From assembly GCA_965200925.1 (NCBI GenBank), contig OZ241738.1:1858291-1922290 (forward strand): a DNA stretch of 64,000 nucleotides, written 5' to 3'. Shown here in pieces: positions 8,191-32,900 of the stretch. The DNA comes from Alphaproteobacteria bacterium. Lineage in GTDB: Bacteria; Pseudomonadota; Alphaproteobacteria; UBA828. The position numbers were made by a program, and so were the translations under genes. A model generated the notes under the pieces. It had not been told where the DNA came from. It saw only the letters and a list, made by a program, of their open reading frames with translations, and did no database searches. Position 1 is the stretch's first letter. Every line of letters starts with the position of its first letter.

Positions 8191-8193
8191 GGC

Positions 8194-10136
<1,943 letters not shown>

Positions 10137-12977
10137 CTAGTGCGTCCCCTCCGCACTGGCCGTAAACAAATCGCGTTGCGCGACCGATTCCGAGGTGGCC
10201 TGTTCCCTCTTCCCCATCGGTTTTCGTGCCGCCTCTTCTTTCAGACGCCTGGACGCCCGTTGATCGGCGGCTCGCAACAGCGCCTCCCACCAAGCGAGAC
10301 CCCACGGCCCCCACTGTCGCTGCAACCGTGCGAAGCGCATGGCGATCTCGCGCGCCTCGCCTGCCGCCGCGCTCGGCGGCAAGGAGTCGCAGCCCCCGAT
10401 CTCGATGGCGGGGCGGGCATTGCCGTGATGCGCCGCGATCAAATGCAATGCCAGCTCGAACCGTGGAGTGCCGCGTTCGATTCCGTCGAGGCCGCGGCGT
10501 TGCGCGTCGAGCATCGATCCGAACTCGTGCCTGTAGCCGTTCAGAACATGGCGGTTGAATGGACCGGTGGTCTTGGCATAGGGGCCTCCATTTCGGTCGG
10601 CGTTGAAAGCACGTTGCCAGCGGGGAGCCGCCTTTCCATCGTCATGGTGGCGGGCGACGGCAGCAAGCATCGTCTGATCTCCCTCCGAAAGACCGATCTC
10701 CTCCGCGATGCGCATCGCCTCGTCCGCGACCCACGCTTGATGCTCGTTCAGGGGCTGCGCCTTCGGAGCCATCGATCGGATTTCTTCATTGTCCTCCGCA
10801 TCGTACCGCTTCTCGACGATCAGCCGGATTTGAGGCTCCCCTTCTGGAGAGACCAGGTACGGCATTTCAAATGTCTTGTTCCAGAGTGCTTCGGGCTCCG
10901 TGGACTCGTTCCCGCGCACCGGCCGGACCCGAATGGCCGACGGATTCTCTCCCCGGACTTTGCCCCAGTTATCTTCGATCGTCGGCACCGGCTCATCACG
11001 GCCGTCGGCCAGCAATCCGTTTTCGACCCCGCCAAGCCGGGCATCCACTACCATCCTCCGTCCGGCAAGCCTTCGATTCAGTTCCTTCACGGGCAGGTCG
11101 TGCACGCTATTCAAATCGAGTTTTGCCTCCTGCTTCCCTCCGTGATCAAGCTTCCCTCCGTAATCAAGCAGGAAAGCGACAGGAATGTCCTGTCGTATCG
11201 GTTGAAGGAGATCGAAACCCGTCGCCCCGTCTGTCGAAGGGGCAGCCTCCGCCCTTTTGTGGAGTGTTCTCAAGAGTTTGCGTGCTCGTTTCCTCAACCA
11301 GTCCACGACCCGCCGCGTCTCGGTTTCGAGCAGTTCCTCGGTTTGCAGCGGGGCGTTCTCGAAGAACGCCTCGATTTCGCTCTTGGGTATCTCGATAGGG
11401 TCATGGCTTCCGTCGCTTTCGAAACGCAGCGGCAAGCAGTGACGCCAAGCGATGGTCATCTGCGGCTCGTCGTCCACCCAACCCCGCAGCCAAGGCGTCA
11501 CTTCCGGCCGGCCCGTGTGTTCGGCCAGCGAGGTCATCGCCCAGGCATCGACCAGGGGTCGGGAAAGCGCCGGATAGAGGGGCATCGGCGTCGAGGCCAT
11601 TTCGATTTCCCCGGCACTCACTTCCTCCCGAAGACGAGAGAGCGCGGCGGGGCTAGCGTCGCGATCGCCTGTTTCCGCCCGCGGCAGGGCTTCAAGCAGC
11701 TTCCGCACGGCCTTGTGGCGGGCGATTCCGTCCTTGCTCGATGCCTTCTCTTCCGGTGGCCCTTGGTCGATCACCAGCACCTGCGCCGCTCCCGCGCCGC
11801 GTCGGTTCACCCGGCCGAGCCGCTGCACCATGCGTTCCCACGCCACCAGATCGCAGACCATGTGATCGGCGTCGAGATCGACACCGACCTCGCCGGCGGA
11901 CGTCGCGACCAGAAACACCGGAGCGGATGGCGCGGCGGCGCTATCGGCAATCAAACCGTGCGTCTTCAAGTCTCCGGCCGCTCCTTCCCGTTCATGCACG
12001 CGCCGCCCACCGACGAACAGGATCGCCTTGGCTTCGGGTTCCTCTTCCTTGATCCGCTTCTTGAGGCTGGTCTCCACTTTCTCCGCCACCGAGCGCCGGT
12101 CGCAGTAGATCACTATGCGCGGCGGCCTGTCTCCCACGGCGGTTTCCTCCTGTGCCAGCCGCCAAGCCCGTTCGGCGAACGCTCCAGCGAGGGCATCGTC
12201 CTGCTTCCCCCCGCTTTCGAGATTCCCTATCGACAGCGCCTTGACCGCATTCAGTCGCTTGCGGACGATCCCGTTCTCCCGATCCTCGTCGTTGAGACGA
12301 AACGACTCCTCTTCGCCGCACAGCGTTGCCGACAGCGGCAGCATCCGGAAGAGGGGTGGCAGTCCCGGGCTGGCCGCCGGGCCGGAGAACACGGAGCGCC
12401 TCTTTTCGATGGTTTGCAGCAGGCGGTGGAACGGGCGGGCGAGATGCGCTTCGTCCAGCACCACCAGAGTGTCACAGCCCATCAGGCCCGCCTCGTAGGG
12501 CCACATACGCCGGGAGACGCCATAGCCCGAGAACAGAAGCCGTGACCCGACCATATCGACGGTGCCGACGACGATTGCGGGCGCGGCCGGATCCTCCAGC
12601 CACTCCCGATTGTCGCGATAGCGGCCGCGCAGGGTGGAGATCGGCAGCGGCCGTCCGTCGAGGCCGAGTGCCCGGCGCACCGGGTCGAGATCGTCGCGGC
12701 AACACAGCGTGTCCCGGATACGCACGGCGAATGCGGTGGCCTGATCGACCACCGCGCGCCGGTCGACGACATAGACCAGTCGCCGGGGCAACTGTGTGCC
12801 GCCGGCCAGCGCCAGCAGCCAGAGCGCCATGACGTCGGTTTTGCCGAGGCCTGTCGGGATATCGACCGCCGACGGCAGGCAGCCCGAGGCGAGCAACCCG
12901 AACAGCCGGCGTTGCCACGGGAAGGGCGGGTACCCAGCCAGCGCCTCGAAGGCGGTATCGAAATCGAACCTCGGCAT
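10137..12977 (-). CDS. cas3: Cas3 helicase-nuclease with a C-terminal HD domain (type I-U/I-G architecture)
   Basis: N-terminal DEAD/DEAH helicase motifs (PWQRRLF..., DIPTGLGKTDVMALW, VLDEAHL). HD-nuclease motifs (ARHHDDGK, HLIAAHHG) lie at the C-terminus, which is diagnostic of the I-U/I-G Cas3 arrangement. The start was chosen at MPRFDFDTAF (12977), preceded by a GGGGAG RBS; the longer ORF starts at 13070. Confidence 0.85.
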   Translation of the reverse strand: MPRFDFDTAFEALAGYPPFPWQRRLFGLLASGCLPSAVDIPTGLGKTDVMALWLLALAGGTQLPRRLVYVVDRRAVVDQATAFAVRIRDTLCCRDDLDPVRRALGLDGRPLPISTLRGRYRDNREWLEDPAAPAIVVGTVDMVGSRLLFSGYGVSRRMWPYEAGLMGCDTLVVLDEAHLARPFHRLLQTIEKRRSVFSGPAASPGLPPLFRMLPLSATLCGEEESFRLNDEDRENGIVRKRLNAVKALSIGNLESGGKQDDALAGAFAERAWRLAQEETAVGDRPPRIVIYCDRRSVAEKVETSLKKRIKEEEPEAKAILFVGGRRVHEREGAAGDLKTHGLIADSAAAPSAPVFLVATSAGEVGVDLDADHMVCDLVAWERMVQRLGRVNRRGAGAAQVLVIDQGPPEEKASSKDGIARHKAVRKLLEALPRAETGDRDASPAALSRLREEVSAGEIEMASTPMPLYPALSRPLVDAWAMTSLAEHTGRPEVTPWLRGWVDDEPQMTIAWRHCLPLRFESDGSHDPIEIPKSEIEAFFENAPLQTEELLETETRRVVDWLRKRARKLLRTLHKRAEAAPSTDGATGFDLLQPIRQDIPVAFLLDYGGKLDHGGKQEAKLDLNSVHDLPVKELNRRLAGRRMVVDARLGGVENGLLADGRDEPVPTIEDNWGKVRGENPSAIRVRPVRGNESTEPEALWNKTFEMPYLVSPEGEPQIRLIVEKRYDAEDNEEIRSMAPKAQPLNEHQAWVADEAMRIAEEIGLSEGDQTMLAAVARHHDDGKAAPRWQRAFNADRNGGPYAKTTGPFNRHVLNGYRHEFGSMLDAQRRGLDGIERGTPRFELALHLIAAHHGNARPAIEIGGCDSLPPSAAAGEAREIAMRFARLQRQWGPWGLAWWEALLRAADQRASRRLKEEAARKPMGKREQATSESVAQRDLFTASAEGTH

Positions 12978-13126
12978 CACGACTCCCCGCCGGAATCTGG
13001 AGGCGGTCCACAGGAAAGGCTTGCGATCCATGATTGCTCCTGTATATCTCGTTTCAGGCGCCCGAGCCAAGACCTAGACCCGTGGCTTCGGCTGCGTGAG
13101 GAGATTTTGGGCACCTCCGGGCGCCG

Positions 13127-13501
13127 CTATCTCCCCCCAGGGCGAATCAGGCGGCCGCGGCGATAGGCGGCGGCGACCTGATTCGGCTTGATCCGGTGGA
13201 ACGTGACGAGAAAGGTCTGGCGCCGATCATCCGTGCATTTGACGACGGCTCGCCACCATTTGCCTTCGTCGAGCTCCGCCGTGAACACCAAGGTGCGGTC
13301 CTTCTCCAAGATTGCCGCCCCTTGGTTGATCACCTTCTGCAAGCGGCTGTAGTCACCAAGTGTGACATCCGGGTGGCGCTCTCTCTGCTTGGCGGCTGTC
13401 TGTCGGGACAGGCGCACGAAACGTGAGTGCCCACCCAGCTGGGCCAGGAGGGAGTCGTCGAGCGCGGCGACTGTCTCGTCTGATGTAGAGGATCGGTTCA
13501 T
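13127..13501 (-). CDS. Hypothetical 124-aa protein directly upstream of cas3 (possible RelE/ParE-like small toxin fold)
   Basis: ORF MNRSSTSDETVAALDDSLLAQLGG...TLVFTAELDEGKWWRAVVKCTDDRRQTFLVTFHRIKPNQV. Alternating beta-strand-like segments followed by an 'HR' motif recall RelE/ParE/HigB-type toxins; there is no confident family assignment. Confidence 0.35.
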   Translation of the reverse strand: MNRSSTSDETVAALDDSLLAQLGGHSRFVRLSRQTAAKQRERHPDVTLGDYSRLQKVINQGAAILEKDRTLVFTAELDEGKWWRAVVKCTDDRRQTFLVTFHRIKPNQVAAAYRRGRLIRPGGR

Positions 13502-13536
13502 CGCTTCATGGTCTGAGGTAGCCGCTCCGATCATCA

Positions 13537-15193
13537 CTACCTCGATCCTGGTCGCTTCGTCAATGGGCACATATGGCGGTACATGAAGCCATTGACGACC
13601 GTGCGAGTAGCATGATAGGGAAGGTGCCGGGCTGCCGAACCAGCAGCCTGGCACCTCATGCCATCGGTATGGAGTCTCATTGAAGCATGTAGCGCCACAG
13701 GTGCTGATGGGCGCGATGCCAAAACTTCCGGGGCCACTGTTGCCCCGGCCTCATTGGAGCGGGGGGAGGGGGGCTCGACAGCCTCGGCTGCATACGGGCT
13801 GGACGGCGACCCCTCCAGCAAACGACTACCCCCAATCTCGGGCGCATCCTCCCGGTCGAGGCGGCCGTGGTTCACCAGCCGTATGCGGATCGTCATCGGC
13901 GAGACGCCGAAATGTTTGGCCACGCTGGTCTGTCTGTCTTCGGAGAGGTCGTCCGCCAGCAGGTCGTCCACGGCGGCGAAGGGGCTCAGCAGTTCGGCGG
14001 CGAAGGCACGCTGCGTCCTCTGACGGTAGCTGATAGGTCCGCGTCGCAGGGAATAGCGTTTCGGCGGGGCAATCGGCCCGGGCGGCGAGCACGCGGTCGC
14101 CGATCAGGCGCGCCAGTTCGAAGCGCCTGCCCGTCTTCCATCTGGACCGCAGCACCAAGCGCGCGCCGCCGCCCGACCCGTCGAGCGCGAAGCACAGGCC
14201 GTCCGAGCGCCGGTGCGTCCGAACGAGCGCGTCGGGCGTCGTTCCCGCCAGGGCCGCGAGCCGCGTGTCGGGGATCGGCTGCCCGTCCAGCCTCTCCCGG
14301 TCGCGGATCTCCCGGGCGACCCCGTATCCCACGCGCCAAGCTTCGGCTTCTCCCGACCGTGGCGTTCCCGCCGCACGGGCTGGTGCCACCGCATCCCTCG
14401 GGTCGGCGTCGAACCCGTGCCGCCGCGCGATGTCCGCGACGCCTTCCGCCGATATCATGTCTTCCAGGGCGCGGCCGCGCAGGGCCGCGTCGGCGGCCAC
14501 TTCACCCCACGCCTCTTCTCCGAATTCCGATGTGCCCGCGAGATGGCGGCGGATCGTGGCTGCGTCGGCCGCATCCGGGTCGCAGCCGAGCTGTGCCTCC
14601 AGCCGTCGGAAGCGCGCCAGTTCCGGGTCCCGTCGCTCCGCCGTCAGGTCGTTCCACAGGCGGTGAAGGTTCGTCGCCCGCACTCCCCGCTCGTCGAGAC
14701 GGGCCAGGACGTCCGTCGCGAAGTCGTCGATGGCGGCCTCGAGGCCGGCGGCCGGGATCGCTTCCGGGTGCGCCGCGCCGACATAGGGAAACAGCACCGA
14801 ATCCGGTTCCGGAGACGGCTCGGAGGCGAGGAACGACAGCAGCCCGTCCGAAAAGATCGTGACGTTGGGCCAAGCATAGCCGCCGCCGATGGCCGCCATG
14901 CGGTGGGCGAAATCCCAGTCGTGCGCGGCCTTTTCCTCGGAGGGCCGCCCGAGCTCCCATCGCAACCGCCACCAGTTCCAAACGAGCCACTCGGCGATGG
15001 GATAGGCGGCAAGGCGAGGTCCGTGGCGAAACTCCCGGCGGTCGGTGTCTTCGATCATGGTGAGATGTCGGCTGTTCACCGTCATCGTGAACAGGCCGAG
15101 CGTCGCCCGTTCCTCCGCCGAGTCGGGCGAGGCTTCCTCATCGGTGAGGGCAGATAGGGCGATCGTCAGCACGTGGGGCATCTCTCGCGCCAT
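13537..15193 (-). pseudogene. Large uncharacterised protein (about 500 aa) whose C-terminus is ImmA/IrrE (COG2856/M78)-like; an apparent +1/-1 frameshift lies near 14020-14035
   Basis: Frame 1 (15193 to about 14030) reads MAREMPHVL...YPIAEWLVWNWWRLRWE...GRRFELARLIGDRVLAARADCPAETLFPATRTYQ. An adjacent frame continues ...QRAFAAELLSPFAAVDDLLADDLSEDRQTSVAKHFGVSPMTIRIRLVNHGRL. The latter matches the E..AN.FAAELLmP and 'fgVS..a...Rl' motifs of ImmA/IrrE peptidases. The position where HEXXH is expected reads RLIGD, an apparently inactive catalytic site. The frame-1 tail after the shift is low-complexity Arg/Pro. Confidence 0.4.
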
Positions 15194-15588
15194 TCCTCGA
15201 TCACGCCGCGCCGGCCCGGGTCTTCGCGACCCAGCATGTAACCGTGATAGTCTCCGCCGCTTCCCAATACGGCTTCGTAAGCACGGCCATTGGAATCGAC
15301 CGCCCAGACGTATTTCGGCAGCCCGTTCTTGCGGAAGCCGCTGACCATCCCCCGCCCGATGCCTTCCCGGAAAAGAGCCTGTGCCTGAGCCTTCTCGATG
15401 GCACCGCACATCGACTTGTTCCTGCGCGGATTCACCGGCGGATGGAAGCCGTAATCGGCGGGCTGGCGCTTGTGGTGGGCGCTGCCGACGTAACGCATTT
15501 CGCCCGCCAAGTGTTCCAGGATGCCCGGGGCGATCGTGCCCTTTCGGGCGATCAGGCGTTTGGGGTCGTTTCCCTGGCGTTTGGACAT
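15166..15588 (-). CDS. Hypothetical 140-aa protein (weak microbial-RNase-like motifs), first gene of the three-gene cassette
   Basis: ORF MSKRQGNDPK...FRKNGLPKYVWAVDSNGRAYEAVLGSGGDYHGYMLGREDPGRRGVIEEWRERCPTC. The Y-H-x-Y...G-R-R-G-V-I segment loosely resembles the barnase/RNase Sa core (YHEYTV...RGTRRII), but the acidic catalytic residue is not evident. The start at 15588 was verified (ATG TCC AAA CGC...). Confidence 0.4.
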   Translation of the reverse strand: MSKRQGNDPKRLIARKGTIAPGILEHLAGEMRYVGSAHHKRQPADYGFHPPVNPRRNKSMCGAIEKAQAQALFREGIGRGMVSGFRKNGLPKYVWAVDSNGRAYEAVLGSGGDYHGYMLGREDPGRRGVIEEWRERCPTC

Positions 15589-17444: not shown

Positions 17445-17455
17445 GGCGCGCCACC

Positions 17456-17749
17456 ATGAACGACGAACGGACCTACATCGTGGCCTACGACATCGCCGAT
17501 GCCCGGCGGTGGCGCCGCGTCTTCAAGACCATGAACGGCTTCGGCGAATGGCTGCAACTCTCGGTGTTCCAGTGCCGCCTGTCGCGCCGTCGCCGCGCGG
17601 AGCTGGAGACGCGCCTGCGCGAGATCGTCAAGACGGGCGAGGACCACGTCCTGCTGATCGACGTCGGTCCCGCGGAGAAGACGGAGCTGGCCGTCGCGAG
17701 CATCGGCAAGACGTTCGCTGCTATTGAAAGGCAAGCGATCGTGATATGA
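17456..17749 (+). CDS. cas2: Cas2
   Basis: 97-aa protein MNDERTYIVAYDIADARRWRRVFKTMNGFGEWLQLSVFQCRLS... (the canonical Cas2 N-terminal beta-strand with YD). It lies 11 nt downstream of cas4-cas1 and about 230 nt upstream of the array. Confidence 0.85.
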   Translation: MNDERTYIVAYDIADARRWRRVFKTMNGFGEWLQLSVFQCRLSRRRRAELETRLREIVKTGEDHVLLIDVGPAEKTELAVASIGKTFAAIERQAIVI

Positions 17750-17979: not shown

Positions 17980-20900
17980 GTTTCCGGGGCTCTATTGCCC
18001 CGGCCTCATTGAAGCTGGTTCCGGTGCGCCTCAGCTGAACAATCCCCTGTGCGTTTCCGGGGCTCTATTGCCCCGGCCTCATTGAAGCAGCTCCCAATGC
18101 GGCATGTCGACGATGCTTTGCCAGTCGCGTTTCCGGGGCTCTATTGCCCCGGCCTCATTGAAGCGATGTCCGCGTCGCTGTCGATGTAGGTCTCGCGGTG
18201 TTTCCGGGGCTCTATTGCCCCGGCCTCATTGAAGCCGCGCCGACACGAACATGCAGATCACGGCCGCACGGTGTTTCCGGGGCTCTATTGCCCCGGCCTC
18301 ATTGAAGCGATACCTTGACGGTTGTTGATGAGCGCAAAGTATTCGGTTTCCGGGGCTCTATTGCCCCGGCCTCATTGAAGCCGAGATGTATGGCTATCAG
18401 ATGGGAGCGTTTGATGGGTTTCCGGGGCTCTATTGCCCCGGCCTCATTGAAGCGCTGCCAGTGACGAGACCATGTCTCCCGAGCCCGTGTTTCCGGGGCT
18501 CTATTGCCCCGGCCTCATTGAAGCGCACGGTCGAACAGGTTCGCGCCCGTCTCAAGACGGAGGTTTCCGGGGCTCTATTGCCCCGGCCTCATTGAAGCAC
18601 CATCTGCAGGCCGAAGCCTCTGCTCATCCTGGTGGTTTCCGGGGCTCTATTGCCCCGGCCTCATTGAAGCGTTCCAGGAAACAACTTATCCATCCGGGCG
18701 GCATCGTTTCCGGGGCTCTATTGCCCCGGCCTCATTGAAGCGAGCCTGCTGGTCGTACTGATCCTCCGTCTCCTCGTGGTTTCCGGGGCTCTATTGCCCC
18801 GGCCTCATTGAAGCGTCTCGAGCAGGAGAGAAGATCAAAAATCTTTCCTGGTTTCCGGGGCTCTATTGCCCCGGCCTCATTGAAGCGCGTGTGCGTCGAG
18901 GGCCCTGGCGCCGAGGCCGGTGTGTTTCCGGGGCTCTATTGCCCCGGCCTCATTGAAGCTTAAGGAACACTCACCTCACTAGGTACGACGAGGGTCGTTT
19001 CCGGGGCTCTATTGCCCCGGCCTCATTGAAGCCCGTATATTGCCTGCCGGCTGTAATGATCCCAATCGGTTTCCGGGGCTCTATTGCCCCGGCCTCATTG
19101 AAGCGGTGTCTTCGATACCCTCACCGTTGTCTCTGAACGCGTTTCCGGGGCTCTATTGCCCCGGCCTCATTGAAGCGTCAGCGCCCGCAATGTCCAGCGT
19201 GCGTGTGTCTACGTTTCCGGGGCTCTATTGCCCCGGCCTCATTGAAGCCACGGCTTCGGACATCCGCAGTCCAGTCACCCATCTCGTTTCCGGGGCTCTA
19301 TTGCCCCGGCCTCATTGAAGCCGGCGGCAGCGCGAGACGAAGGTACCAGTGAGCGTCCTCGTTTCCGGGGCTCTATTGCCCCGGCCTCATTGAAGCCTCG
19401 CCCGCGTCTACCCTCCTGCCCTGCTCTTCCGTCGTTTCCGGGGCTCTATTGCCCCGGCCTCATTGAAGCGATCCGCGTCGTACCTGATGTCTAGTCCATT
19501 TGATTGGTTTCCGGGGCTCTATTGCCCCGGCCTCATTGAAGCCTGAAGCCGATAGCGCCCATAGCCTCTCTCGCTGCTCCGTTTCCGGGGCTCTATTGCC
19601 CCGGCCTCATTGAAGCCTTTTGTTGGTGACCCTTCTCAGGTTGAGGTCCAGGTTTCCGGGGCTCTATTGCCCCGGCCTCATTGAAGCCCCGGAGCATGGC
19701 GTCGTGCAGCTTCTCGGCTGCATCGTTTCCGGGGCTCTATTGCCCCGGCCTCATTGAAGCGAAGGTGAATGGGAAGGTGTCATTCGCCTCGCGTCTGTTT
19801 CCGGGGCTCTATTGCCCCGGCCTCATTGAAGCTCGTAGGCATCCTCGATGTCGATACGCGCCTCCGTCGTTTCCGGGGCTCTATTGCCCCGGCCTCATTG
19901 AAGCATCAAGGCACTCTTGCTCGCTTGGCTAAGCTGCTCCCTGTTTCCGGGGCTCTATTGCCCCGGCCTCATTGAAGCGAGTCTGGCGAGGCCTCTAAGG
20001 CGCGTGATCACGCCGTTTCCGGGGCTCTATTGCCCCGGCCTCATTGAAGCGCATAGTCGATTCGGAGGTGCATCATGGCAAAGCGTCGTTTCCGGGGCTC
20101 TATTGCCCCGGCCTCATTGAAGCGAATGCCCCAGGCGGAACATCCCGCCCTTGACGCGGGTTTCCGGGGCTCTATTGCCCCGGCCTCATTGAAGCGCTTC
20201 GCTGAATATCGCTGGGTGTTTGGGAAACAGAAAGTTTCCGGGGCTCTATTGCCCCGGCCTCATTGAAGCAGACGGCGTGTGTCTATATGGAAGGCGCCCG
20301 TCCTGCGTTTCCGGGGCTCTATTGCCCCGGCCTCATTGAAGCGTATCAGGTCTCCCTCGAGGTGGATCCGCCACTCTGGGTTTCCGGGGCTCTATTGCCC
20401 CGGCCTCATTGAAGCCGGACGAGCTCCAGGACGATCTCCGCTTCACGATAGGTTTCCGGGGCTCTATTGCCCCGGCCTCATTGAAGCCTGGCGAACTGGA
20501 TCTCCAGGCGTTGGACATTGACACTGTTTCCGGGGCTCTATTGCCCCGGCCTCATTGAAGCGATGTCGGCATCGCTGTCGATGTAGGTCTCGCGGTTGTT
20601 TCCGGGGCTCTATTGCCCCGGCCTCATTGAAGCACCCCCGTCGTACTTAGTGAGGTGAGTGTTCCTTAAGTTTCCGGGGCTCTATTGCCCCGGCCTCATT
20701 GAAGCGCCACGGCATGGCGTCGACTGCGAGGGACGGCAATGCGTTTCCGGGGCTCTATTGCCCCGGCCTCATTGAAGCGTACTCGTCCGCGTCCCACGTC
20801 CACTTGTCTCCGAAGGTTTCCGGGGCTCTATTGCCCCGGCCTCATTGAAGCTCCCCCGCCTCGAAGCCCACGGTCGCAATGTCGCAGTTTCCGGGGCTCT

Positions 20901-23900
20901 ATTGCCCCGGCCTCATTGAAGCTTCGTTCCGGAGCGTCTCGATCCACCTGAGCGCCTGCGTTTCCGGGGCTCTATTGCCCCGGCCTCATTGAAGCCGATA
21001 GTGTCGCGTGGCAGGAAGTTGCGGCGAGGGCGGTTTCCGGGGCTCTATTGCCCCGGCCTCATTGAAGCCGGGCAACGATGACAACCGTCACCGACGCCCC
21101 CGGCGTTTCCGGGGCTCTATTGCCCCGGCCTCATTGAAGCGCCAGCTTCCGCCGCACGGTCGAGGCGGCGCTCGCCGAGTTTCCGGGGCTCTATTGCCCC
21201 GGCCTCATTGAAGCGCGACGGCCGCCTGTACGGCGTCGGGCTTGCGTGCGTCGTTTCCGGGGCTCTATTGCCCCGGCCTCATTGAAGCGTCCACGTCCCC
21301 GCAGATGTTGATGCGCCAGCACGCCGTTTCCGGGGCTCTATTGCCCCGGCCTCATTGAAGCGACAGCGACGGCGTGTCGGTGACGGGACGAGCTTCCGCG
21401 TTTCCGGGGCTCTATTGCCCCGGCCTCATTGAAGCCCCTATCGCCCGAGCCAGGCGCCGTCACGCCGGCGGGCGGCGTTTCCGGGGCTCTATTGCCCCGG
21501 CCTCATTGAAGCCAGCCATGGTACGACGTGACGGCCGCAGCGGGCGGCGTTTCCGGGGCTCTATTGCCCCGGCCTCATTGAAGCCGCGGGGCTTCGCCTT
21601 AACGTCGTCGGCGGGAAGCTCGGTTTCCGGGGCTCTATTGCCCCGGCCTCATTGAAGCGAGGAATTCTCCCTAACCGTGGAGGACGTGACGGCGCAGTTT
21701 CCGGGGCTCTATTGCCCCGGCCTCATTGAAGCGGGCGCGGGAGGAGGTGGAGGGAGACGCCGTGCGGCTGGGTTTCCGGGGCTCTATTGCCCCGGCCTCA
21801 TTGAAGCGCGGCCTTCGCTTCCGATTGCAGCGTCGCGCGAAGGGTTTCCGGGGCTCTATTGCCCCGGCCTCATTGAAGCGACGCGATGTCCGAAGCGGCA
21901 AGGGCGGCCCACTCCGTTTCCGGGGCTCTATTGCCCCGGCCTCATTGAAGCGTATAGGCGGCGTACAGGTCCCTGTAGATTTCCATCGTTTCCGGGGCTC
22001 TATTGCCCCGGCCTCATTGAAGCCACTGGGGTGCTCATCGGAACGCCCCCCTGCGGAACGGTTTCCGGGGCTCTATTGCCCCGGCCTCATTGAAGCGGAC
22101 CAGGCACGGGCGAGAAGCGCCGAACACGAGAACCCGTTTCCGGGGCTCTATTGCCCCGGCCTCATTGAAGCCGCCGCTCCTGGCTGTGGGGTTCCGTCGC
22201 CGCGACTGTTTCCGGGGCTCTATTGCCCCGGCCTCATTGAAGCTGTGGGCGGCGGGGGGTGGACACATGCGAGCCGATCTGTTTCCGGGGCTCTATTGCC
22301 CCGGCCTCATTGAAGCCGCACCGCGCGCCGCTTCCGGTTCCGCTCCCGCTGCTGTTTCCGGGGCTCTATTGCCCCGGCCTCATTGAAGCGGGGGGCGGGC
22401 GGCCTCACCGCCCGCCCCCGACACGAAGTTTCCGGGGCTCTATTGCCCCGGCCTCATTGAAGCTCAACCTTGCGTGCATGGCTCTCTCCTAGGTCAGGTC
22501 GTTTCCGGGGCTCTATTGCCCCGGCCTCATTGAAGCCTGAGGCGCCCCCGGAACCCCCGGCCCTACGGGCGGCGTTTCCGGGGCTCTATTGCCCCGGCCT
22601 CATTGAAGCAAGCCGATCCGTCGCGATCCCGGTCTTGAGAGATAGCGTTTCCGGGGCTCTATTGCCCCGGCCTCATTGAAGCTGAGATTGCAACCAGGCG
22701 GGGAACCGCGAAGGTGCTGTTTCCGGGGCTCTATTGCCCCGGCCTCATTGAAGCGCTTGCAGACGGCGTGCGAGTTGGCGGCGAGGGCGCGGCGTTTCCG
22801 GGGCTCTATTGCCCCGGCCTCATTGAAGCGCGGGCGGGGGTATCAGCTCCGCCAGGTCGCGCTCGGCGTTTCCGGGGCTCTATTGCCCCGGCCTCATTGA
22901 AGCCGGGATGATTGAAGGAAAGATGGTCGCAACGGATCCCGTTTCCGGGGCTCTATTGCCCCGGCCTCATTGAAGCCGGTGGCCAGCGGCGCAAGGGAAG
23001 CCGGCGGGCCGGGGTTTCCGGGGCTCTATTGCCCCGGCCTCATTGAAGCGCGATGCCGGATTCGCCACGTGGGACGCCTGGTCGCGCACGTTTCCGGGGC
23101 TCTATTGCCCCGGCCTCATTGAAGCCCCTTTGCTGTCAGCACGCAGCATCAGGATCAGCTGCGTTTCCGGGGCTCTATTGCCCCGGCCTCATTGAAGCAC
23201 GTCTATCCCGACAATGCCCATGATGGCGATGTTGTGTTGTTTCCGGGGCTCTATTGCCCCGGCCTCATTGAAGCGCCACCATGGACTCCCAGCGGGTGGG
23301 AATCAGGTGGGTTTCCGGGGCTCTATTGCCCCGGCCTCATTGAAGCCACACCCGCACGCCCGAAGCCCCGCCGCCCGTCCCAGTTTCCGGGGCTCTATTG
23401 CCCCGGCCTCATTGAAGCATTTCTGGTCCCCCCCCGGCCCGGCCTTCCGGTGCCGGCGCGTTTCCGGGGCTCTATTGCCCCGGCCTCATTGAAGCTCGAC
23501 GGGTTCGGGAAGGCGCGGGTTCACCATGTGATAGTTTCCGGGGCTCTATTGCCCCGGCCTCATTGAAGCAGGTCGATCATGTGAAGCCCTTGCGCGATGG
23601 CGGGGCGGTTTCCGGGGCTCTATTGCCCCGGCCTCATTGAAGCTCCCCAGCGGTTTTCGCGAAGTGACAGCCCCGGCAAGTTTCCGGGGCTCTATTGCCC
23701 CGGCCTCATTGAAGCGGAATGGTGCTCCTGCGTGACCGCCCGAACGTCAGCTTCGTTTCCGGGGCTCTATTGCCCCGGCCTCATTGAAGCCTGGGCATGA
23801 AGCGGCATGACGAGACCGCCCAGACCTAGTTTCCGGGGCTCTATTGCCCCGGCCTCATTGAAGCTATCACATGGTGAATCCGCGCCTTCCCGAACCCGTC

Positions 23901-26900
23901 GAGTTTCCGGGGCTCTATTGCCCCGGCCTCATTGAAGCGAGGTTCGAAGGTCTGATTCCGCATGCGGGCGGGGCGTTTCCGGGGCTCTATTGCCCCGGCC
24001 TCATTGAAGCGGCTTGTCCGAATACGGATCACGCAGCACCCGCACGCCGTTTCCGGGGCTCTATTGCCCCGGCCTCATTGAAGCCCAGACGGGAGCCAGC
24101 GCCGCCATTCCCAACGCGCCTTGTTTCCGGGGCTCTATTGCCCCGGCCTCATTGAAGCGGGGAAGGCGCCGCCGCATGGGAGCGGATGGCGCGAGCGGTT
24201 TCCGGGGCTCTATTGCCCCGGCCTCATTGAAGCAAAATCCGCACCCCCGAGCCGACAGACGGACAGATAGGTTTCCGGGGCTCTATTGCCCCGGCCTCAT
24301 TGAAGCCTCCGGCAGGGACGGCTTCCGACGCAGCTTCTCCCCGATGTTTCCGGGGCTCTATTGCCCCGGCCTCATTGAAGCGCACCCTCCGAGGATGCCT
24401 CACACCCGACGGGCGGAAGTTTCCGGGGCTCTATTGCCCCGGCCTCATTGAAGCAAAGCCGTGGGGCGGGTGGCCCTGCTCGATACGGTGAGTTTCCGGG
24501 GCTCTATTGCCCCGGCCTCATTGAAGCATCTGGGCGGCCGTCACGGCAAGGCGGTCGATGTGCAACGTTTCCGGGGCTCTATTGCCCCGGCCTCATTGAA
24601 GCGCAATCGGTGGCGGCGTCGTAAAGGGCCGGCTGCGGCGTTTCCGGGGCTCTATTGCCCCGGCCTCATTGAAGCGCTTCGCTTTCACCCGCCCTTCAAG
24701 GCAAGCCCGACGGTTTCCGGGGCTCTATTGCCCCGGCCTCATTGAAGCAAGACAAGCGCACCGGGGCAAGGCTTCGCGTTCTTGGTTTCCGGGGCTCTAT
24801 TGCCCCGGCCTCATTGAAGCAAATCCATGCGGGCAAGAGTCTCGCGGCTTCCGACGGCGTTTCCGGGGCTCTATTGCCCCGGCCTCATTGAAGCAAAGCC
24901 GTGGGGCGGGTGGCCCTGCTCGATACGGTGAGTTTCCGGGGCTCTATTGCCCCGGCCTCATTGAAGCATCTGGGCGGCCGTCACGGCAAGGCGGTCGATG
25001 TGCAACGTTTCCGGGGCTCTATTGCCCCGGCCTCATTGAAGCGCAATCGGTGGCGGCGTCGTAAAGGGCCGGCTGCGGCGTTTCCGGGGCTCTATTGCCC
25101 CGGCCTCATTGAAGCGCTTCGCTTTCACCCGCCCTTCAAGGCAAGCCCGACGGTTTCCGGGGCTCTATTGCCCCGGCCTCATTGAAGCAAGACAAGCGCA
25201 CCGGGGCAAGGCTTCGCGTTCTTGGTTTCCGGGGCTCTATTGCCCCGGCCTCATTGAAGCGACGACGCCCTGGAATGCGTCGAGCATCACGGACGCAGTT
25301 TCCGGGGCTCTATTGCCCCGGCCTCATTGAAGCATGTGCCAGCGTCCGTTCTGCTTCCAGATTTCGCCCTGTTTCCGGGGCTCTATTGCCCCGGCCTCAT
25401 TGAAGCATGGGGTCGGGTTCCTCAGCGGCGGACTCCAGAAAACGTTTCCGGGGCTCTATTGCCCCGGCCTCATTGAAGCCAATAATACTGGTGTTGTTCA
25501 TGTCTCTGCTCTTGGTGGTTTCCGGGGCTCTATTGCCCCGGCCTCATTGAAGCCCTCTTGAAGGAGAGGTCCTGCTGGCGAGGCACAAGCGTTTCCGGGG
25601 CTCTATTGCCCCGGCCTCATTGAAGCGACCTATAGTAGCCTGATCTGCTTGGAAAAGACGACCGTTTCCGGGGCTCTATTGCCCCGGCCTCATTGAAGCG
25701 CCGTCACCGATCGGGTAGGTGTCGTCCTTCCCGACGTTTCCGGGGCTCTATTGCCCCGGCCTCATTGAAGCTGTGTGACCGGCCACGACTTGCCGTCACA
25801 CTTCTTGGGTTTCCGGGGCTCTATTGCCCCGGCCTCATTGAAGCATCGCACGCTCCAGGAGCGACAGATGTGCCCATCCGATTGTTTCCGGGGCTCTATT
25901 GCCCCGGCCTCATTGAAGCGCGCTGCTGATTGTCAACCGTGCGTGCATGGCTCTCTCGTTTCCGGGGCTCTATTGCCCCGGCCTCATTGAAGCGCGGCCA
26001 TGGGCGTTTCGGGGAGGCGGTCGCCGCCCGGCGTTTCCGGGGCTCTATTGCCCCGGCCTCATTGAAGCCATCGACCATGACGCCGACACCACGATCACGA
26101 ACAACCCGAGGTTTCCGGGGCTCTATTGCCCCGGCCTCATTGAAGCCAGCGTCCGTTCTGCTTCCAGATTTCGCCGTCACCGAGTTTCCGGGGCTCTATT
26201 GCCCCGGCCTCATTGAAGCGTCGAGGATGGCGCCTCAGTCGCCTTGGTAGCCTCGGTTTCCGGGGCTCTATTGCCCCGGCCTCATTGAAGCCCGCTTCTC
26301 CGCGTCGGCAATCTCGACGTCCAGGGCCGTTTCCGGGGCTCTATTGCCCCGGCCTCATTGAAGCGACGCCGGCATGACGTGGGCCGGAAGCCCCGACAAC
26401 CGTTTCCGGGGCTCTATTGCCCCGGCCTCATTGAAGCGTACGACGCTTTCGTTGGGTCCGCTGGCGATCTTGCCGGGTTTCCGGGGCTCTATTGCCCCGG
26501 CCTCATTGAAGCGCACAGTTCCCGGTATCGCTCGTCGGGCAGCCCTTCGTTTCCGGGGCTCTATTGCCCCGGCCTCATTGAAGCTCCGAGCAGACGCTGA
26601 GGGTCGCCTAGCCCCGTGTGAGTTTCCGGGGCTCTATTGCCCCGGCCTCATTGAAGCGGCGTGTGGGACGGGCGGCGGGGCTTCGGGCGTGCGTTTCCGG
26701 GGCTCTATTGCCCCGGCCTCATTGAAGCGCACGCTTGCGCCGGCGGAGCGGGGTTGGTGGTACGGTTTCCGGGGCTCTATTGCCCCGGCCTCATTGAAGC
26801 AGCTTGGACGCCAGGGCCTCGGCCTTTTCACGGGCCTGTTTCCGGGGCTCTATTGCCCCGGCCTCATTGAAGCGCCAGATGGCGACTCCGCCGCCGCTGG

Positions 26901-29900
26901 CGCGCGCGCTGTTTCCGGGGCTCTATTGCCCCGGCCTCATTGAAGCATCTCGTCCGCGCCCGGCGGATCGGCGCCGAGCAGCGTTTCCGGGGCTCTATTG
27001 CCCCGGCCTCATTGAAGCCCGCCCATGGAGGAAGCACACGGCGGGGGTGGTCGGATGAGTTTCCGGGGCTCTATTGCCCCGGCCTCATTGAAGCCTGGAT
27101 CGTGACCCGGCCTTCACGACTCACCGGTTGGGCCGTTTCCGGGGCTCTATTGCCCCGGCCTCATTGAAGCGGGTGCTGTAGAGCGTTCCGTCCATCACAG
27201 CACCTTTGTTTCCGGGGCTCTATTGCCCCGGCCTCATTGAAGCACGAACTCGCTCGATCTCGACGACGATTCACACGGTGTTTCCGGGGCTCTATTGCCC
27301 CGGCCTCATTGAAGCCATCAAGCCCGCGAGCCCGGCAGCACGAGCCGGTTCGTTTCCGGGGCTCTATTGCCCCGGCCTCATTGAAGCCAAGAAGGGACTC
27401 AAGACTGTCGGCAATTTCCTCAAGGTTTCCGGGGCTCTATTGCCCCGGCCTCATTGAAGCACCGGCTCGAACACGGCCTGCCTCCGCTGGCGCCGCCGTT
27501 TCCGGGGCTCTATTGCCCCGGCCTCATTGAAGCTGCCGCCTCAATTGAAGCGTGAGTTCCAGCAGTCTGCGTTTCCGGGGCTCTATTGCCCCGGCCTCAT
27601 TGAAGCTCGGTTTCGTGCCATAAGTTTGTCTCCGATGGTCGGGTTTCCGGGGCTCTATTGCCCCGGCCTCATTGAAGCCGCAACCAGCAATGGAGCGTCG
27701 CCGCTCATGAGGCGGTTTCCGGGGCTCTATTGCCCCGGCCTCATTGAAGCACGGGGCCGACGCCAAGCCCGACGCGAGCGAGTGAGTTTCCGGGGCTCTA
27801 TTGCCCCGGCCTCATTGAAGCCTGTGCCTTCCGGGCCGCGTCCTTGGCGCGCCGGGCCGCGTTTCCGGGGCTCTATTGCCCCGGCCTCATTGAAGCCGGC
27901 CCAGGATTTTGTAGACGCCCCACGGTGACAACCGTTTCCGGGGCTCTATTGCCCCGGCCTCATTGAAGCCGCCGTCGGCATGTCAACATAGGAGCGTATC
28001 AGGGTCGGTTTCCGGGGCTCTATTGCCCCGGCCTCATTGAAGCGGGATCGTCGGGCACGGGGATCACGTGGCCCCGTGGCGTTTCCGGGGCTCTATTGCC
28101 CCGGCCTCATTGAAGCGTGTACCTGGCCATGCTAGATGTCCTTGGCCAGTGCCGTTTCCGGGGCTCTATTGCCCCGGCCTCATTGAAGCGATGCAGGCTG
28201 TCGGCGCGGGCCCCGGTCCCATGGGGGTTTCCGGGGCTCTATTGCCCCGGCCTCATTGAAGCGGTGTATGATCTACTCTGTGAGTGCGAGCGAACTATCG
28301 TTTCCGGGGCTCTATTGCCCCGGCCTCATTGAAGCCTCCTGTGCTGTATGAGGAGGCTTCCTATCTCGACACCGTTTCCGGGGCTCTATTGCCCCGGCCT
28401 CATTGAAGCTGATGATGCACGCTGCCCGGCGGATCTGCTCGCCGTCGTTTCCGGGGCTCTATTGCCCCGGCCTCATTGAAGCGATCTTCGCGGGTGTCTG
28501 AATGTCTTATCGTCCCTCTCGTTTCCGGGGCTCTATTGCCCCGGCCTCATTGAAGCTTTGGGCCGGGGGGGGGGGTGGACATATGCGATCCGATCTGTTT
28601 CCGGGGCTCTATTGCCCCGGCCTCATTGAAGCGGGGATGTGGGCGCTCCTCGCCTGCGGAGTCGCGTTGTTTCCGGGGCTCTATTGCCCCGGCCTCATTG
28701 AAGCGCGCGCCGGCGACGGTCATCAACGGCCCCGCCAGCATGCGGTTTCCGGGGCTCTATTGCCCCGGCCTCATTGAAGCGTGTCGGGGGCGGGCGGTGA
28801 GGCCGCCCGCCCCCGAAGGTTTCCGGGGCTCTATTGCCCCGGCCTCATTGAAGCTTGGTCTGTGTGGCATTCCTGCCACACCTGTGTCCTTGTTTCCGGG
28901 GCTCTATTGCCCCGGCCTCATTGAAGCGTGCGCGAGGGCGCCGCGTGACCTGCCTGGACTCCTCGTTTCCGGGGCTCTATTGCCCCGGCCTCATTGAAGC
29001 CGACGACATCGTCGACGACCACCGCGCGATCCGCATCGTTTCCGGGGCTCTATTGCCCCGGCCTCATTGAAGCTCCGGGGTGCTCGCCACGCGGCGGCGC
29101 TCGGTCGCCGGTTTCCGGGGCTCTATTGCCCCGGCCTCATTGAAGCCACAAGGCGGGCGTGCAGGCTCGGGGTCATGACGAAGTTTCCGGGGCTCTATTG
29201 CCCCGGCCTCATTGAAGCCCCCCCACCACGACGCCCCCACGCCATCGCCCGCCGGTTTCCGGGGCTCTATTGCCCCGGCCTCATTGAAGCCGTGTCAGTC
29301 ACCATCTTCGCCCGTGCCTCGCGCGCGTTTCCGGGGCTCTATTGCCCCGGCCTCATTGAAGCGCCTTGCCCCCGCCCAGGCAGTCTCGCTGTTGATGCGT
29401 TTCCGGGGCTCTATTGCCCCGGCCTCATTGAAGCCCGCTCGCCTCGCCCCCCTCTACCAGGCGCTGGCGGATGTTTCCGGGGCTCTATTGCCCCGGCCTC
29501 ATTGAAGCAAGCAAGCAACCAGCGGATCGATCTTGCCCGAAGCCCCGTTTCCGGGGCTCTATTGCCCCGGCCTCATTGAAGCCATCACGAGTTCGTGTGC
29601 GGCTCTGGCAACCAGACGTTTCCGGGGCTCTATTGCCCCGGCCTCATTGAAGCGTAGTACTTCGACTCGGTGTCGGACGGCTTGAGAATGTGTTTCCGGG
29701 GCTCTATTGCCCCGGCCTCATTGAAGCTCGTCATAGTCGTAGACCCCCCGGCCTTGAAGGCGGGTTTCCGGGGCTCTATTGCCCCGGCCTCATTGAAGCG
29801 CGTGACGGCGCACCCGCCCGGACTTCAAGCCGCGCCGTTTCCGGGGCTCTATTGCCCCGGCCTCATTGAAGCCTGTGGGGTGACGATGCCGACGGCGCCG

Positions 29901-32900
29901 CGTGGCCTTGTTTCCGGGGCTCTATTGCCCCGGCCTCATTGAAGCGCCAGCGACCTGTCGGGCCGTGCGCGGGCGTTCCAAGGTTTCCGGGGCTCTATTG
30001 CCCCGGCCTCATTGAAGCCATTTCGCCTTGTGTGTGGTGGCTGCCGTCGAGTCAGTTTCCGGGGCTCTATTGCCCCGGCCTCATTGAAGCCCGTTACGGA
30101 CAGCCCTGCCACCGGCCCGTTATGCAGCGTTTCCGGGGCTCTATTGCCCCGGCCTCATTGAAGCAAGTGATCCAGCTGGCCAGTTTGAAACACATCGTCG
30201 TAGTTTCCGGGGCTCTATTGCCCCGGCCTCATTGAAGCCCCTGCATGTATGCCCTGTTCTGCGCGGCTGCGTTCCGTTTCCGGGGCTCTATTGCCCCGGC
30301 CTCATTGAAGCTACTTGGCATTTTGGCACAACCGCCCGGTGTGTCAAGTTTCCGGGGCTCTATTGCCCCGGCCTCATTGAAGCGAGCGTGACCCGTCCTT
30401 CACGACTCACCGGTTGGGAGTTTCCGGGGCTCTATTGCCCCGGCCTCATTGAAGCCGCCGCCGGCGCGCCCTTCGTCGCCATCATTCGCCCCGTTTCCGG
30501 GGCTCTATTGCCCCGGCCTCATTGAAGCCTCTCTACTGGCAGATCGTGGAAGCGGGCGAACGGGGTTTCCGGGGCTCTATTGCCCCGGCCTCATTGAAGC
30601 GGCGGGCCGCACTCACGGCCGCGAGGGAACGCGAGATGTTTCCGGGGCTCTATTGCCCCGGCCTCATTGAAGCTCCGCAGCGGCATACTCCGCCTCCACG
30701 CCCGTGGCATGTTTCCGGGGCTCTATTGCCCCGGCCTCATTGAAGCGCCAGGTTCTTGAGTGTCTCCAACCCGTCGAAGGCGTCGTTTCCGGGGCTCTAT
30801 TGCCCCGGCCTCATTGAAGCGCCTCGTGCCAGCCGGGGGTGCGCGCGGGGCGCGCGGGTTTCCGGGGCTCTATTGCCCCGGCCTCATTGAAGCGGCCTGT
30901 TCGAAGCGGACCCTCGCGCAGCAAACCCCGTTTCCGGGGCTCTATTGCCCCGGCCTCATTGAAGCCCGGTGGTCAGTCGCCGGTCGGCGGCACCACCTAC
31001 GCCGTTTCCGGGGCTCTATTGCCCCGGCCTCATTGAAGCAGATCCACTTAATTGGCACTGCCCAATTGGGCAGAGAGTTTCCGGGGCTCTATTGCCCCGG
31101 CCTCATTGAAGCATCAGGGACCTCCGGGACGCGGGCGGCGGCCTCATCGTTTCCGGGGCTCTATTGCCCCGGCCTCATTGAAGCTAGTCCATCGCCGTCC
31201 CGGGCGCCGGGACGAGCGGCGTTTCCGGGGCTCTATTGCCCCGGCCTCATTGAAGCACGGCCGCGCAGCGCGACCTGATCATCGCCCTCTCGGAGTTTCC
31301 GGGGCTCTATTGCCCCGGCCTCATTGAAGCACCGTTCGTCGCCGGCGATCGCCCCGGCGCTGGCGAGTTTCCGGGGCTCTATTGCCCCGGCCTCATTGAA
31401 GCCGCGAGATCGGGCAGCTGGGGCCGCGCGAATTCGAGGTTTCCGGGGCTCTATTGCCCCGGCCTCATTGAAGCACGCGAGATTGCCGTTTCCCCATATT
31501 GGCAATGTGCAACGTTTCCGGGGCTCTATTGCCCCGGCCTCATTGAAGCCCGCCGCGCTCGCCGGTGCGGGGCACGACGAGGCGCGTTTCCGGGGCTCTA
31601 TTGCCCCGGCCTCATTGAAGCCCGGTGCTGCCAACTACAATGCCGCCGATGGTGCCGAGGGTTTCCGGGGCTCTATTGCCCCGGCCTCATTGAAGCTTCG
31701 TGACACTCATCGCGCCGCCGTCAGGTCGTGGCGTTTCCGGGGCTCTATTGCCCCGGCCTCATTGAAGCTTCGTATCGGAGGAAGGTATCGAGGTCGGTGA
31801 CCGCGTTTCCGGGGCTCTATTGCCCCGGCCTCATTGAAGCATGTCGAGCGCCTGGCGCTCCTCGAGCGAGCGTCGGTTTCCGGGGCTCTATTGCCCCGGC
31901 CTCATTGAAGCGCTTTGTGCTGCATCATGTGGAGTGATCCGCGCCTGGGTTTCCGGGGCTCTATTGCCCCGGCCTCATTGAAGCAAGGGCGGCCTCGGTG
32001 GCCTCCTGCAGACTGGTCTGGTTTCCGGGGCTCTATTGCCCCGGCCTCATTGAAGCTCTTCCGCCGCAGTACAAGCGTGAATTTCGCCAGTGTTTCCGGG
32101 GCTCTATTGCCCCGGCCTCATTGAAGCCCCATGGCCACCTCCCTAGGCCGCTTGCACGGGCTTGGTTTCCGGGGCTCTATTGCCCCGGCCTCATTGAAGC
32201 CGGGGCCGCAAGTATGGGACGCTCTACGAGGTGGACGTTTCCGGGGCTCTATTGCCCCGGCCTCATTGAAGCAAGATCAAGCTGCACCCGGAGCGCTTCG
32301 ACGAACCGGTTTCCGGGGCTCTATTGCCCCGGCCTCATTGAAGCATCAACGACCTGGACGGGCGGGCGATCAACTTCCTGGTTTCCGGGGCTCTATTGCC
32401 CCGGCCTCATTGAAGCAAGCCAGGCCACTTGCCGGAATACCAGTTGGGGTCCGTTTCCGGGGCTCTATTGCCCCGGCCTCATTGAAGCACACGCCGAGGG
32501 CGCGGAAGACACGGGCGTATTCCTCGTTTCCGGGGCTCTATTGCCCCGGCCTCATTGAAGCGTCGGCAACTACGACGCGACGGTGGGGGCGAACGCCGTT
32601 TCCGGGGCTCTATTGCCCCGGCCTCATTGAAGCATGTCGAGCGCCTGGCGCTCCTCGAGCGAGCGTCGGTTTCCGGGGCTCTATTGCCCCGGCCTCATTG
32701 AAGCGCCAGAGGGACGCCGGACGCGACCTAGGCGGTATCGTTTCCGGGGCTCTATTGCCCCGGCCTCATTGAAGCGTGTTGTCGCAGGAGCCGTTCCAGA
32801 GGACCGTCGCGTTTCCGGGGCTCTATTGCCCCGGCCTCATTGAAGCCGCTCTTGCATGGCGTGTGCGGTCGCGCCGCACGCGTTTCCGGGGCTCTATTGC

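Follow-up and report, generated by a model that had tools for sequence, protein, structure and literature searches.

We analyzed the minus-strand gene that starts at position 15193 of a 64,000-nt stretch of an Alphaproteobacteria bacterium contig (OZ241738.1, positions 1,858,291 to 1,922,290; hereafter, the window). This large gene had been noticed in the interval 13537–15193 and described in the original prediction as a frameshifted "cassette" protein with an ImmA/IrrE-like domain. It is not a cassette of the integron type but belongs, as the second of two genes, to a conserved mobile operon (encoding about 140 aa, then about 455 aa), carried as cargo in a type I-G CRISPR-cas locus. The gene itself extends from 15193 to about 13829, while the last ~290 nt of the interval form a separate element, a mini-CRISPR with a promoter region. 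The features of the operon are as follows.

15166..15588, minus strand: small partner gene, 140 aa (MSKRQGND…WRERCPTC), an intact open reading frame (ORF) whose stop overlaps the start of the large gene
14034..15193, minus strand: in-frame 5' part of the large gene, residues 1–386, with the ~280-aa N-terminal region and the first half of the ImmA/IrrE-like domain
14096..14110, minus strand: codons of R362-L363-I364-G365-D366, at the position of the HEXXH zinc-binding/catalytic motif (hhalign)
14033, minus strand: inserted T, the +1 frameshift lesion, outside any homopolymer run (pairwise DNA alignment to L001; blastn to L092, L093 and L001)
14020..14022, minus strand: Gln codon, the Q391 equivalent, at the position of the third zinc ligand Glu (IrrE E113; hhalign)
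13829..14032, minus strand: 3' part of the large gene, now in the +1 frame, SYRQRTQRAFAAELLSP…VSPMTIRIRLVNHGRLDREDAPEIGG, with the third-ligand-equivalent helix and the helix-turn-helix (HTH)-like helices of the M78 fold
13826..13828, minus strand: TAG ending the frameshifted ORF (P0002; translation)

A two-gene operon with a frameshifted second gene

Translated from the ATG at 15193, the large gene encodes the conserved protein as far as residue 386 (MAREMPHVLT…GRRFELARLIGDRVLAARADCPAETLFPATRTY) and then an Arg/Pro-rich tail, QLPSEDAACLRRRTAEPLRRRGRPAGGRPLRRQ…PRPPRPGGCARDWG, up to the stop at 13826–13828. The +1 frame (…SYRQRTQRAFAAELLSPFAAVDDLLADDLSEDRQTSVAKHFGVSPMTIRIRLVNHGRLDREDAPEIGG…), which is open to 13537, resumes the homologous protein past residue 386 and continues it down to ~13829; the tail is thus out-of-frame translation, as originally supposed. 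The formal end of this second frame at 13537 is not the end of the gene, because DNA homology to close relatives stops at ~13829–13838; it resumes near 13125, in the region upstream of cas3. When the conceptually joined protein was used as the query, more than 1,263 homologues of about 450–460 aa were retrieved, and these read through the junction in a single frame (…PATR(T/A)YSYRQ(K/R)xQRAFAAE(L/F)LSP…). In the deposited genome the gene is called as P0002 (451 aa), which contains the frameshift and ends in the junk tail. No recognised fold was assigned to the N-terminal ~280 aa of the large protein.

The small and the large gene are co-oriented, with overlapping stop and start codons. The small gene stands upstream of the large one in 79 of 84 loci (94% co-occurrence), and also upstream of distant plasmid relatives. 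The small protein of the window is 99% identical to P0121, and the homologue search yielded at least 173 members of its family, in which residues H39, K40, D45, Y46, G47, F48, R55, S59, C61, K92, E105, Y114, H115, G116 and Y117 are invariant. Among 28 members scanned there was no match to any Pfam family, including no HTH or Xre match, and no Xre gene adjoins the module in the loci examined. Fold searches of PDB and BFVD with the small protein gave no match, and the most conserved stretch of this protein is a low-confidence prediction in the structure model. A resemblance to barnase/RNase T1-like nucleases, based on a motif, had no tool support and was dropped. No description of the two-gene module was found, and the partner represents a novel family. 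On the Tistrella mobilis plasmid pTM2 (L085, 3451–3978), the partner, unannotated in the record, has YKGWP for YHGYP and Q for the invariant Glu; judging from these residues, this partner may have been inactivated.

A full scan with HMMER, covering 1.84 billion representatives clustered at 50% identity, assigned 2,799 clusters to the family at E ≤ 1e-3 and 918 at E ≤ 1e-30. A search of genome contigs found the family in 502 GTDB species genomes from many phyla. Many carriers are metagenome-assembled genomes (MAGs) of Alphaproteobacteria, Binatia, Dehalococcoidia, Spirochaetia, Nitrospirales and Poriferihabitaceae; cultured carriers belong to Mesorhizobium, Methylosinus and Thauera. The genomic contexts of the module are unrelated between genomes, and some copies lie near defence, toxin-antitoxin (TA) or mobile genes, the neighbours at some loci being Dnd/DptH, patatin, HigB, MazE and insertion sequence (IS) elements. 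As expected of a TA module, the overlapping co-oriented pair moves as a unit through these contexts. Long-read MAGs of taxa typical of sponge microbiomes (Binatia, Poriferihabitaceae, Dehalococcoidia, Nitrospirales, Spirochaetia and Latescibacterota) carry the family strikingly often, and this spread suggests horizontal transfer within that community.

The lesion in the large gene is a single extra base: the window reads ACCTA[T]CAGC where the intact relative L001 reads ACCTACAGC. A 1-nt indel had been expected near 14020–14035, and blastn of 15800–13838 places it at 14033, this base being the only gap against each of three independent relatives, L092 and L093 (both 97.6% identical to the window at the nucleotide level) and L001 (96.5%). 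The inserted T puts the last 69 codons of the large gene out of frame.

Three origins of the shift had been proposed, namely a recent pseudogene, programmed frameshifting and an assembly error, and only the first and the third stand. A programmed +1 ribosomal frameshift leading to the full-length protein is excluded because the 96.5–97.6% identical relatives and 79 of the 80 species-representative genomes read a single intact ORF (~455 aa). It is true that skipping one base at TAT-C restores exactly the homologous protein sequence, but the 0-frame codon past the site is an ordinary CAG rather than a stop or a hungry codon, and no Shine-Dalgarno-like stimulator is seen upstream in the sequence; programming is therefore extremely improbable. 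The frameshift is a lesion or an assembly error, ordinary in itself.

The inserted T is probably a very recent real inactivating mutation. Its context, CCTA[T]CAG, is not a homopolymer, and long-read consensus errors are uncommon there; the window copy lacks the in-frame stop where it normally stands; the deposited gene call carries the frameshift; and in the sister locus L088 the same module has genuinely decayed to a remnant at the same place. An error in the consensus of a long-read MAG, with the gene really intact and functional, nonetheless takes a substantial minority share of our weighting, while programmed frameshifting takes a nearly negligible one. The case for an error is that there is no other decay. 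The repaired protein keeps all strongly conserved residues (63/63), 47/47 upstream and 16/16 downstream of the shift, the latter being the strongly conserved columns of 13829–14032, so that no substitution indicating relaxed selection has occurred at conserved positions past the shift. In addition, the partner gene is intact, as are the close relatives from other samples' assemblies. If the pair is a TA module, loss of the large gene alone is rare (1/80 genomes), and the unusual state of a broken large gene beside an intact small one keeps the artefact hypothesis alive.

Codons downstream of the shift diverge more than those upstream (13/69 vs 27/386), but the changes are mostly synonymous and adjoin a recombination breakpoint, and therefore do not date the lesion. 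A 23-mer with the inserted T had no match in a scan of JGI metagenomes. The 22-mer of the intact allele matched one contig there (L094), which was rejected as a chance match since the contig is unrelated. An exact-sequence look-up of the large and small proteins of the window found none on record.

The ImmA/IrrE-like domain and its replaced zinc site

The C-terminal ImmA/IrrE-like domain claimed for the large protein is supported by profile and structure comparisons. Pfam PF06114 (Peptidase_M78) scores 14.9 bits on the repaired window protein, below the gathering threshold of 22. Scores of its relatives are also sub-threshold (P0001, 14.0 bits), and 10 of 30 family members match at E ≤ 1, the best at E 1.2e-4. 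The AlphaFold2 model of P0001, which is 94% identical to the large protein, has a predicted local distance difference test score (pLDDT) of 81 and a predicted template modelling score (pTM) of 0.83. Its best Foldseek matches in PDB are CapP (7t5t, prob 1.00), IrrE (3dte/3dti) and PprI (8slm/8sln); Mycobacterium tuberculosis 6cyy/6cz6, described in PDB as "transcriptional regulator" and presumably PrpR, was also found.

None of the PDB sequences was matched by HMMER profiles, whether built from the full-length family or from the C-terminal domain, and for this reason we turned to hhalign; the homology appeared only in profile-profile comparison. A 21-sequence alignment of the C-terminal domain of the family was compared with aligned M78 fragments of IrrE, PprI, CapP and 9vzy, which had been retrieved with a consensus query. 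The match (Prob 93.1%, E 3.2e-7, 82 columns) pairs RRFELARLIGD with QRFTLAHEISH, and YRQRAQHAFAAELLSP with I-ETLCNVGAAALLMP. The profile alignment and the structure model support an M78 fold and scaffold homology of the C-terminal domain.

The same alignment puts GRRFELARLIGD (codons 14131–14096) at the position of RFTLAHExxH in M78 peptidases and confirms both the motif positions and the loss of HEXXH. The ligand His is replaced by R362, Glu by L363, the other His by D366, and the third ligand Glu (IrrE E113) by Q391. The substitution of the His/Glu ligands by R/L/D had been recognized correctly, but it is not decay of this copy. Where the window reads A-R-L-I-G-D, HExxH occurs in 0 of 122 diverse full-length members, and the replacing residues are near-invariant, which makes the replaced site a trait of the family. 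Among the 122 members, R357 is conserved in 122, R362 in 121, D366 in 116, R390 in 116, Q394 in 119, F397 in 121 and P404 in 122, and Gln stands at the third-ligand position (Q391) instead of Glu in 120. Such near-invariance implies strong purifying selection, and the site is therefore remodelled rather than rotting. Plasmid relatives with 24–31% identity have the same A-R-x-x-G-D and no HExxH; the NCBI annotation of one of them reads "ImmA/IrrE family metallo-endopeptidase".

HEXXH defines COG2856/M78 and is essential for activity (PMC2701414, PMC7907104). Judged by sequence, the domain fails on this motif as an M78 peptidase; since zinc ligands and the catalytic base are replaced throughout the family, the large protein would not be a zinc peptidase of the usual kind. 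One could suppose instead that the C-terminal domain is an enzyme using R362, D366 and Q391 for some other, metal-independent chemistry, the near-invariance of the substituted residues meaning that the site is under selection and function is not lost. However, no precedent for such chemistry was retrieved, the known COG2856 proteins require HEXXH for activity (PMC7907104, PMC2701414), and at least one of them, Rir, binds without cleaving (PMC7907104). We consider such an enzyme quite improbable and retain the view that the remodelled groove of the large protein would serve as a binding or sensing site and not in catalysis.

The mini-CRISPR element and its type I-G surroundings

The separate element downstream of the large gene comprises the following features, listed together with the adjacent gene.

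13724..13760, plus strand: degenerate repeat psiR2, ACTTCCGGGGCCACTGTTGCCCCGGCCTCATTGGAGC, with the hairpin stem kept (Rfam CRISPR-DR16, 32.3 bits, E 9.5e-5)
13687..13723, plus strand: spacer-like psiS, 37 nt, ATGTAGCGCCACAGGTGCTGATGGGCGCGATGCCAAA (sequence comparison)
13651..13686, plus strand: remnant upstream repeat psiR1, only the 3' handle part CTCATTGAAGC; the repeat spacing of 74 nt equals the array period
13548..13587, minus strand: TTC protospacer adjacent motif (PAM) and partial protospacer ATGTAcCGCCAtAtGTGC… matching psiS; the protospacer, 13584–13548, ends 14 nt upstream of the ORF135 start codon
13127..13534, minus strand: ORF135, encoding a 135-aa CRISPR-associated protein, candidate for the gene repressed by the mini-array (ORF, homologue search)

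The plus strand of 13651–13760 is a non-coding, degenerate mini-array of the resident repeat inside the cas locus; psiR2 scores 32.3 bits with CRISPR-DR16 vs 42.8–44.1 for the repeats of the main array. The target of psiS at 13584–13548, ~100 nt from the mini-array, is its best partial match in the whole 64-kb window, with a 13-nt match run and mismatches at positions 6 and 12, and also at 14. Every sixth position (6, 12) is flipped out in type I effectors. In a shuffle control, 6 of 200 shuffled spacers reached that match length anywhere in the 64 kb, with neither a PAM nor proximity required. The PAM agrees with TTN, the PAM of type I-G (PMC9638904).

The element is conserved in L001 (9436–9569), L089 (5836–6009), L091 (5825–6002), L092 and L088. 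These five loci have the same spacer/target arrangement with different, co-varying sequences and TTC or TTT as the PAM: L001 has a 19-nt run with mismatches at 6, 12 and 18 (TTC); in L092, position 11 is altered in both spacer and target compared with L001; in L088, which has TTT, positions 1 and 5 co-vary with the window; and L089 and L091, both with TTC, match at 14/15 and 13/15 non-flipped positions, respectively. Across the window and the five loci, the TTN-flanked target lies 28–47 nt upstream of the next ORF.

In the window this ORF is ORF135, which has 14 homologues; in all four contexts examined it stands between a mini-array and type I-G effector genes, immediately upstream of the latter. 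Pfam gave it a weak match to MuF_C (E 0.005), and in L001, L092 and L093 its slot is occupied by an unrelated 72-aa ORF. By analogy with described elements, 13548–13760 resembles CRISPR-derived regulators of the CreA/CreR/CrePA class and is predicted to act by repression, and ORF135 may be either a CrePA-like toxin under repression or, as with CreR, the leading gene of an effector operon that represses itself. A scan of 13050–13900 for sigma-70 promoters and terminators found nothing. At 13138–13190, within the 3' end of ORF135 and upstream of the cas3 promoter region, there is a 24-nt imperfect inverted repeat (79% complementary, 5-nt loop).

The rest of the CRISPR-cas locus consists of the following features.

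17980..34671, plus strand: main CRISPR array of 229 perfect 36-nt repeats, GTTTCCGGGGCTCTATTGCCCCGGCCTCATTGAAGC, and one degenerate terminal repeat, ~16.7 kb (Rfam CRISPR-DR16)
17450–17749, plus strand: cas2, divergent from the module (Pfam)
15693–17444, plus strand: cas4-cas1 fusion, divergent from the module (Pfam)
10137..13070, minus strand: cas3 of the type I-G effector operon (Pfam)
9252–10136, minus strand: gene for 294 aa in the effector operon, after cas3
8194–9255, minus strand: Cas_GSU0053 (Pfam)
5953–8190, minus strand: Cas_GSU0054 (Pfam)

Cas_GSU0053, Cas_GSU0054, the Cas4-Cas1 fusion and a Cas3 with a C-terminal HD domain, all recognized with Pfam, identify the locus as type I-G (formerly I-U). 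In the window, L001, L092/L093 and L091, the two-gene module is flanked by cas4-cas1 on one side and the mini-array on the other. In L088, the same slot holds a decayed remnant of the large gene (5056–5760) with …CFALE…RR.ELA…NHGRLGREDASDIAGRG codons, and no small partner was called.

This shared slot could mean that the module is tied functionally to type I-G CRISPR, as an accessory or as cargo regulated by the mini-array, and type I-D mini-arrays regulating cargo TA genes are on record (PMC10120712). We find this unlikely. A cas gene lies within 4 kb of the module in only 1 of 80 species-level loci, and for this reason we rejected a general CRISPR association and regard the module as cargo of one lineage's type I-G locus; the loci sharing the arrangement have cas4-cas1 genes 80–98% identical, which points to a single ancestral insertion. 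Regulation of the module by the mini-array was likewise rejected, because psiS has no partial match near the upstream (promoter) region of the module, its only good match being upstream of ORF135.

Comparison of the window (5953–13070) with L088 (6888–12480) and L091 (6542–12255) showed that cas4-cas1 is 80–81% and cas2 85–87% identical, whereas Cas3 is only ~33% identical and the order of effector genes differs, cas3 being first in one case and last in the other. This suggests that the effector module was swapped around a conserved junction of cas4-cas1, the two-gene module and the mini-array.

Proposed function and comparison with known systems

The explanation that best accounts for the locus as a whole, with a probability of roughly 0.55, is that the large gene is the broken member of a mobile pair and encodes a pseudo-peptidase, that the two proteins have TA-like roles, and that a mini-CRISPR lies downstream. 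The pair would work as a TA or abortive-infection module in which the small protein, with its invariant H, K, D, R, S, C, K, E and H, would be the active, potentially harmful component, and the large pseudo-peptidase would bind and restrain it, or sense it, via the remodelled groove. In its most specific form, which we put forward tentatively, the proposal is that the pair is a new, very widespread TA/abortive-infection family, in which the ImmA/IrrE fold has become a non-catalytic receptor, with R362, D366 and Q391 for the zinc site. This receptor might hold or sense the small effector via the conserved loop of the latter, GSxHHK…DYGF…NPR…KSxCD, which is predicted with low confidence, so that a pseudo-protease "substrate trap" would serve as the antitoxin or sensor.

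Several observations weigh against this explanation. Neither module protein matched a toxin or antitoxin family in Pfam, NCBIfam, PADLOC or PHROGs, and no PADLOC defence model was matched; the NCBIfam, PADLOC and PHROGs scans of both proteins and of ORF135 gave nothing usable. The small protein, as noted, lacks a fold match. The fully retained conserved residues of the repaired large protein give no sign of decay, and a consensus error at 14033 has the considerable minority weight stated above. Moreover, breaking an essential antitoxin while the small gene is intact should be harmful, which makes it more likely that the shift is an artefact or that the N-terminal 386 residues suffice. Finally, decay of the module is asymmetric. 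In 80 species genomes (L005–L084), the small gene is absent, truncated or frameshifted in ~15 and the large gene is broken in one, although the large gene is a three-fold larger mutational target; this speaks indirectly for a TA-like pair but fits equally well a system with a large core and a small accessory.

The latter alternative, a pair that is not TA-like and in which the large protein would form the core of a sensor or defence system working on its own, with the small protein as a dispensable accessory or regulator, has a modest chance of being correct. The large gene is intact in ~14 genomes in which the small one is lost or broken, implying selection on the large gene alone. The very large size of the family (2,799 clusters) and the copies adjoining Dnd/DptH, patatin, HigB, MazE and IS elements also fit this alternative. 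On the other hand, no PADLOC defence model recognizes the pair, the overlap of the two genes at their stop and start codons, together with 94% co-occurrence, indicates a tight functional pair, and the invariant polar residues of the small protein look catalytic rather than regulatory as far as can be judged from its sequence. We therefore keep the TA-like pair as the preferred explanation.

The interest of the locus is twofold: an undescribed two-gene family with a probably non-catalytic ImmA/IrrE fold, and a well-supported type I-G mini-CRISPR, a predicted regulator, in what had been taken for the tail of a gene. ImmA/IrrE proteases are recurrent switches of prophages, integrative and conjugative elements (ICEs), cyclic-oligonucleotide-based antiphage signalling systems (CBASS) and DNA-damage responses. 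A non-catalytic ImmA/IrrE branch with a new partner would extend this protease-switch theme: the broken gene belongs to a large, unnamed family in which the whole zinc site of the fold has been exchanged for other invariant residues, and its small, uncharacterised partner has invariant residues that look enzyme-like. Subtype I-G is the least studied of type I, and the mini-array, whose spacer and target co-vary across six loci, is a concrete candidate there for CreA/CrePA-like control.

The closest known counterparts of the element 13548–13760 are the mini-arrays of CreTA, CrePA and CreR (Li et al. 2021, as cited in PMC10120712; bioRxiv 10.1101/2024.01.05.574328; bioRxiv 10.1101/2023.03.10.532045). 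Like these, it has two degenerate repeats flanking a spacer inside a cas locus, and the spacer is partly complementary to a PAM-flanked site upstream of the adjacent gene, with every-sixth mismatches. It differs in belonging to subtype I-G, and in that the candidate repressed gene is of a new 135-aa family, or an unrelated 72-aa ORF in sister loci. For this subtype we came across a single figure, 4% of 235 loci (PMC10120712), but no mini-array described individually.

The large protein shares with ImmA/IrrE proteins (MEROPS M78, COG2856, PF06114: IrrE/PprI-DdrO, ImmA-ImmR, CapP-CapH) the scaffold RRF-x-L-A-…, …FAAELLxP, followed by the G-V-S HTH-like helix pair, as well as a gene position beside a small partner and mobile or defence contexts. 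It differs from them in that the zinc ligands and the catalytic Glu are replaced (H to R, E to L, H to D, E to Q) in the family members examined; in that the domain is C-terminal in a 455-aa protein, behind a ~280-aa region of no known fold and with no GAF domain; in its score below the Pfam gathering threshold; and in a partner that is not an Xre-type HTH repressor. The COG2856 anti-repressor Rir of a Streptococcus thermophilus prophage offers a precedent for binding a partner without cleavage, as summarised in PMC7907104; in Rir a predicted HEXXH is retained, and the comparison made here covered the domain.

The COG2856-Xre TA-like modules (Makarova et al. 2009, PMC2701414) resemble the window module in being small mobile operons of a COG2856 protein and a small partner, patchily distributed and often near TA or defence genes. 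Those modules, however, keep HEXXH, their COG2856 domain is paired with or fused to an Xre HTH, and a third gene often encodes a RelE or PIN toxin, whereas the window module has no HEXXH and no Xre and pairs its COG2856-like protein with a partner of a novel family.

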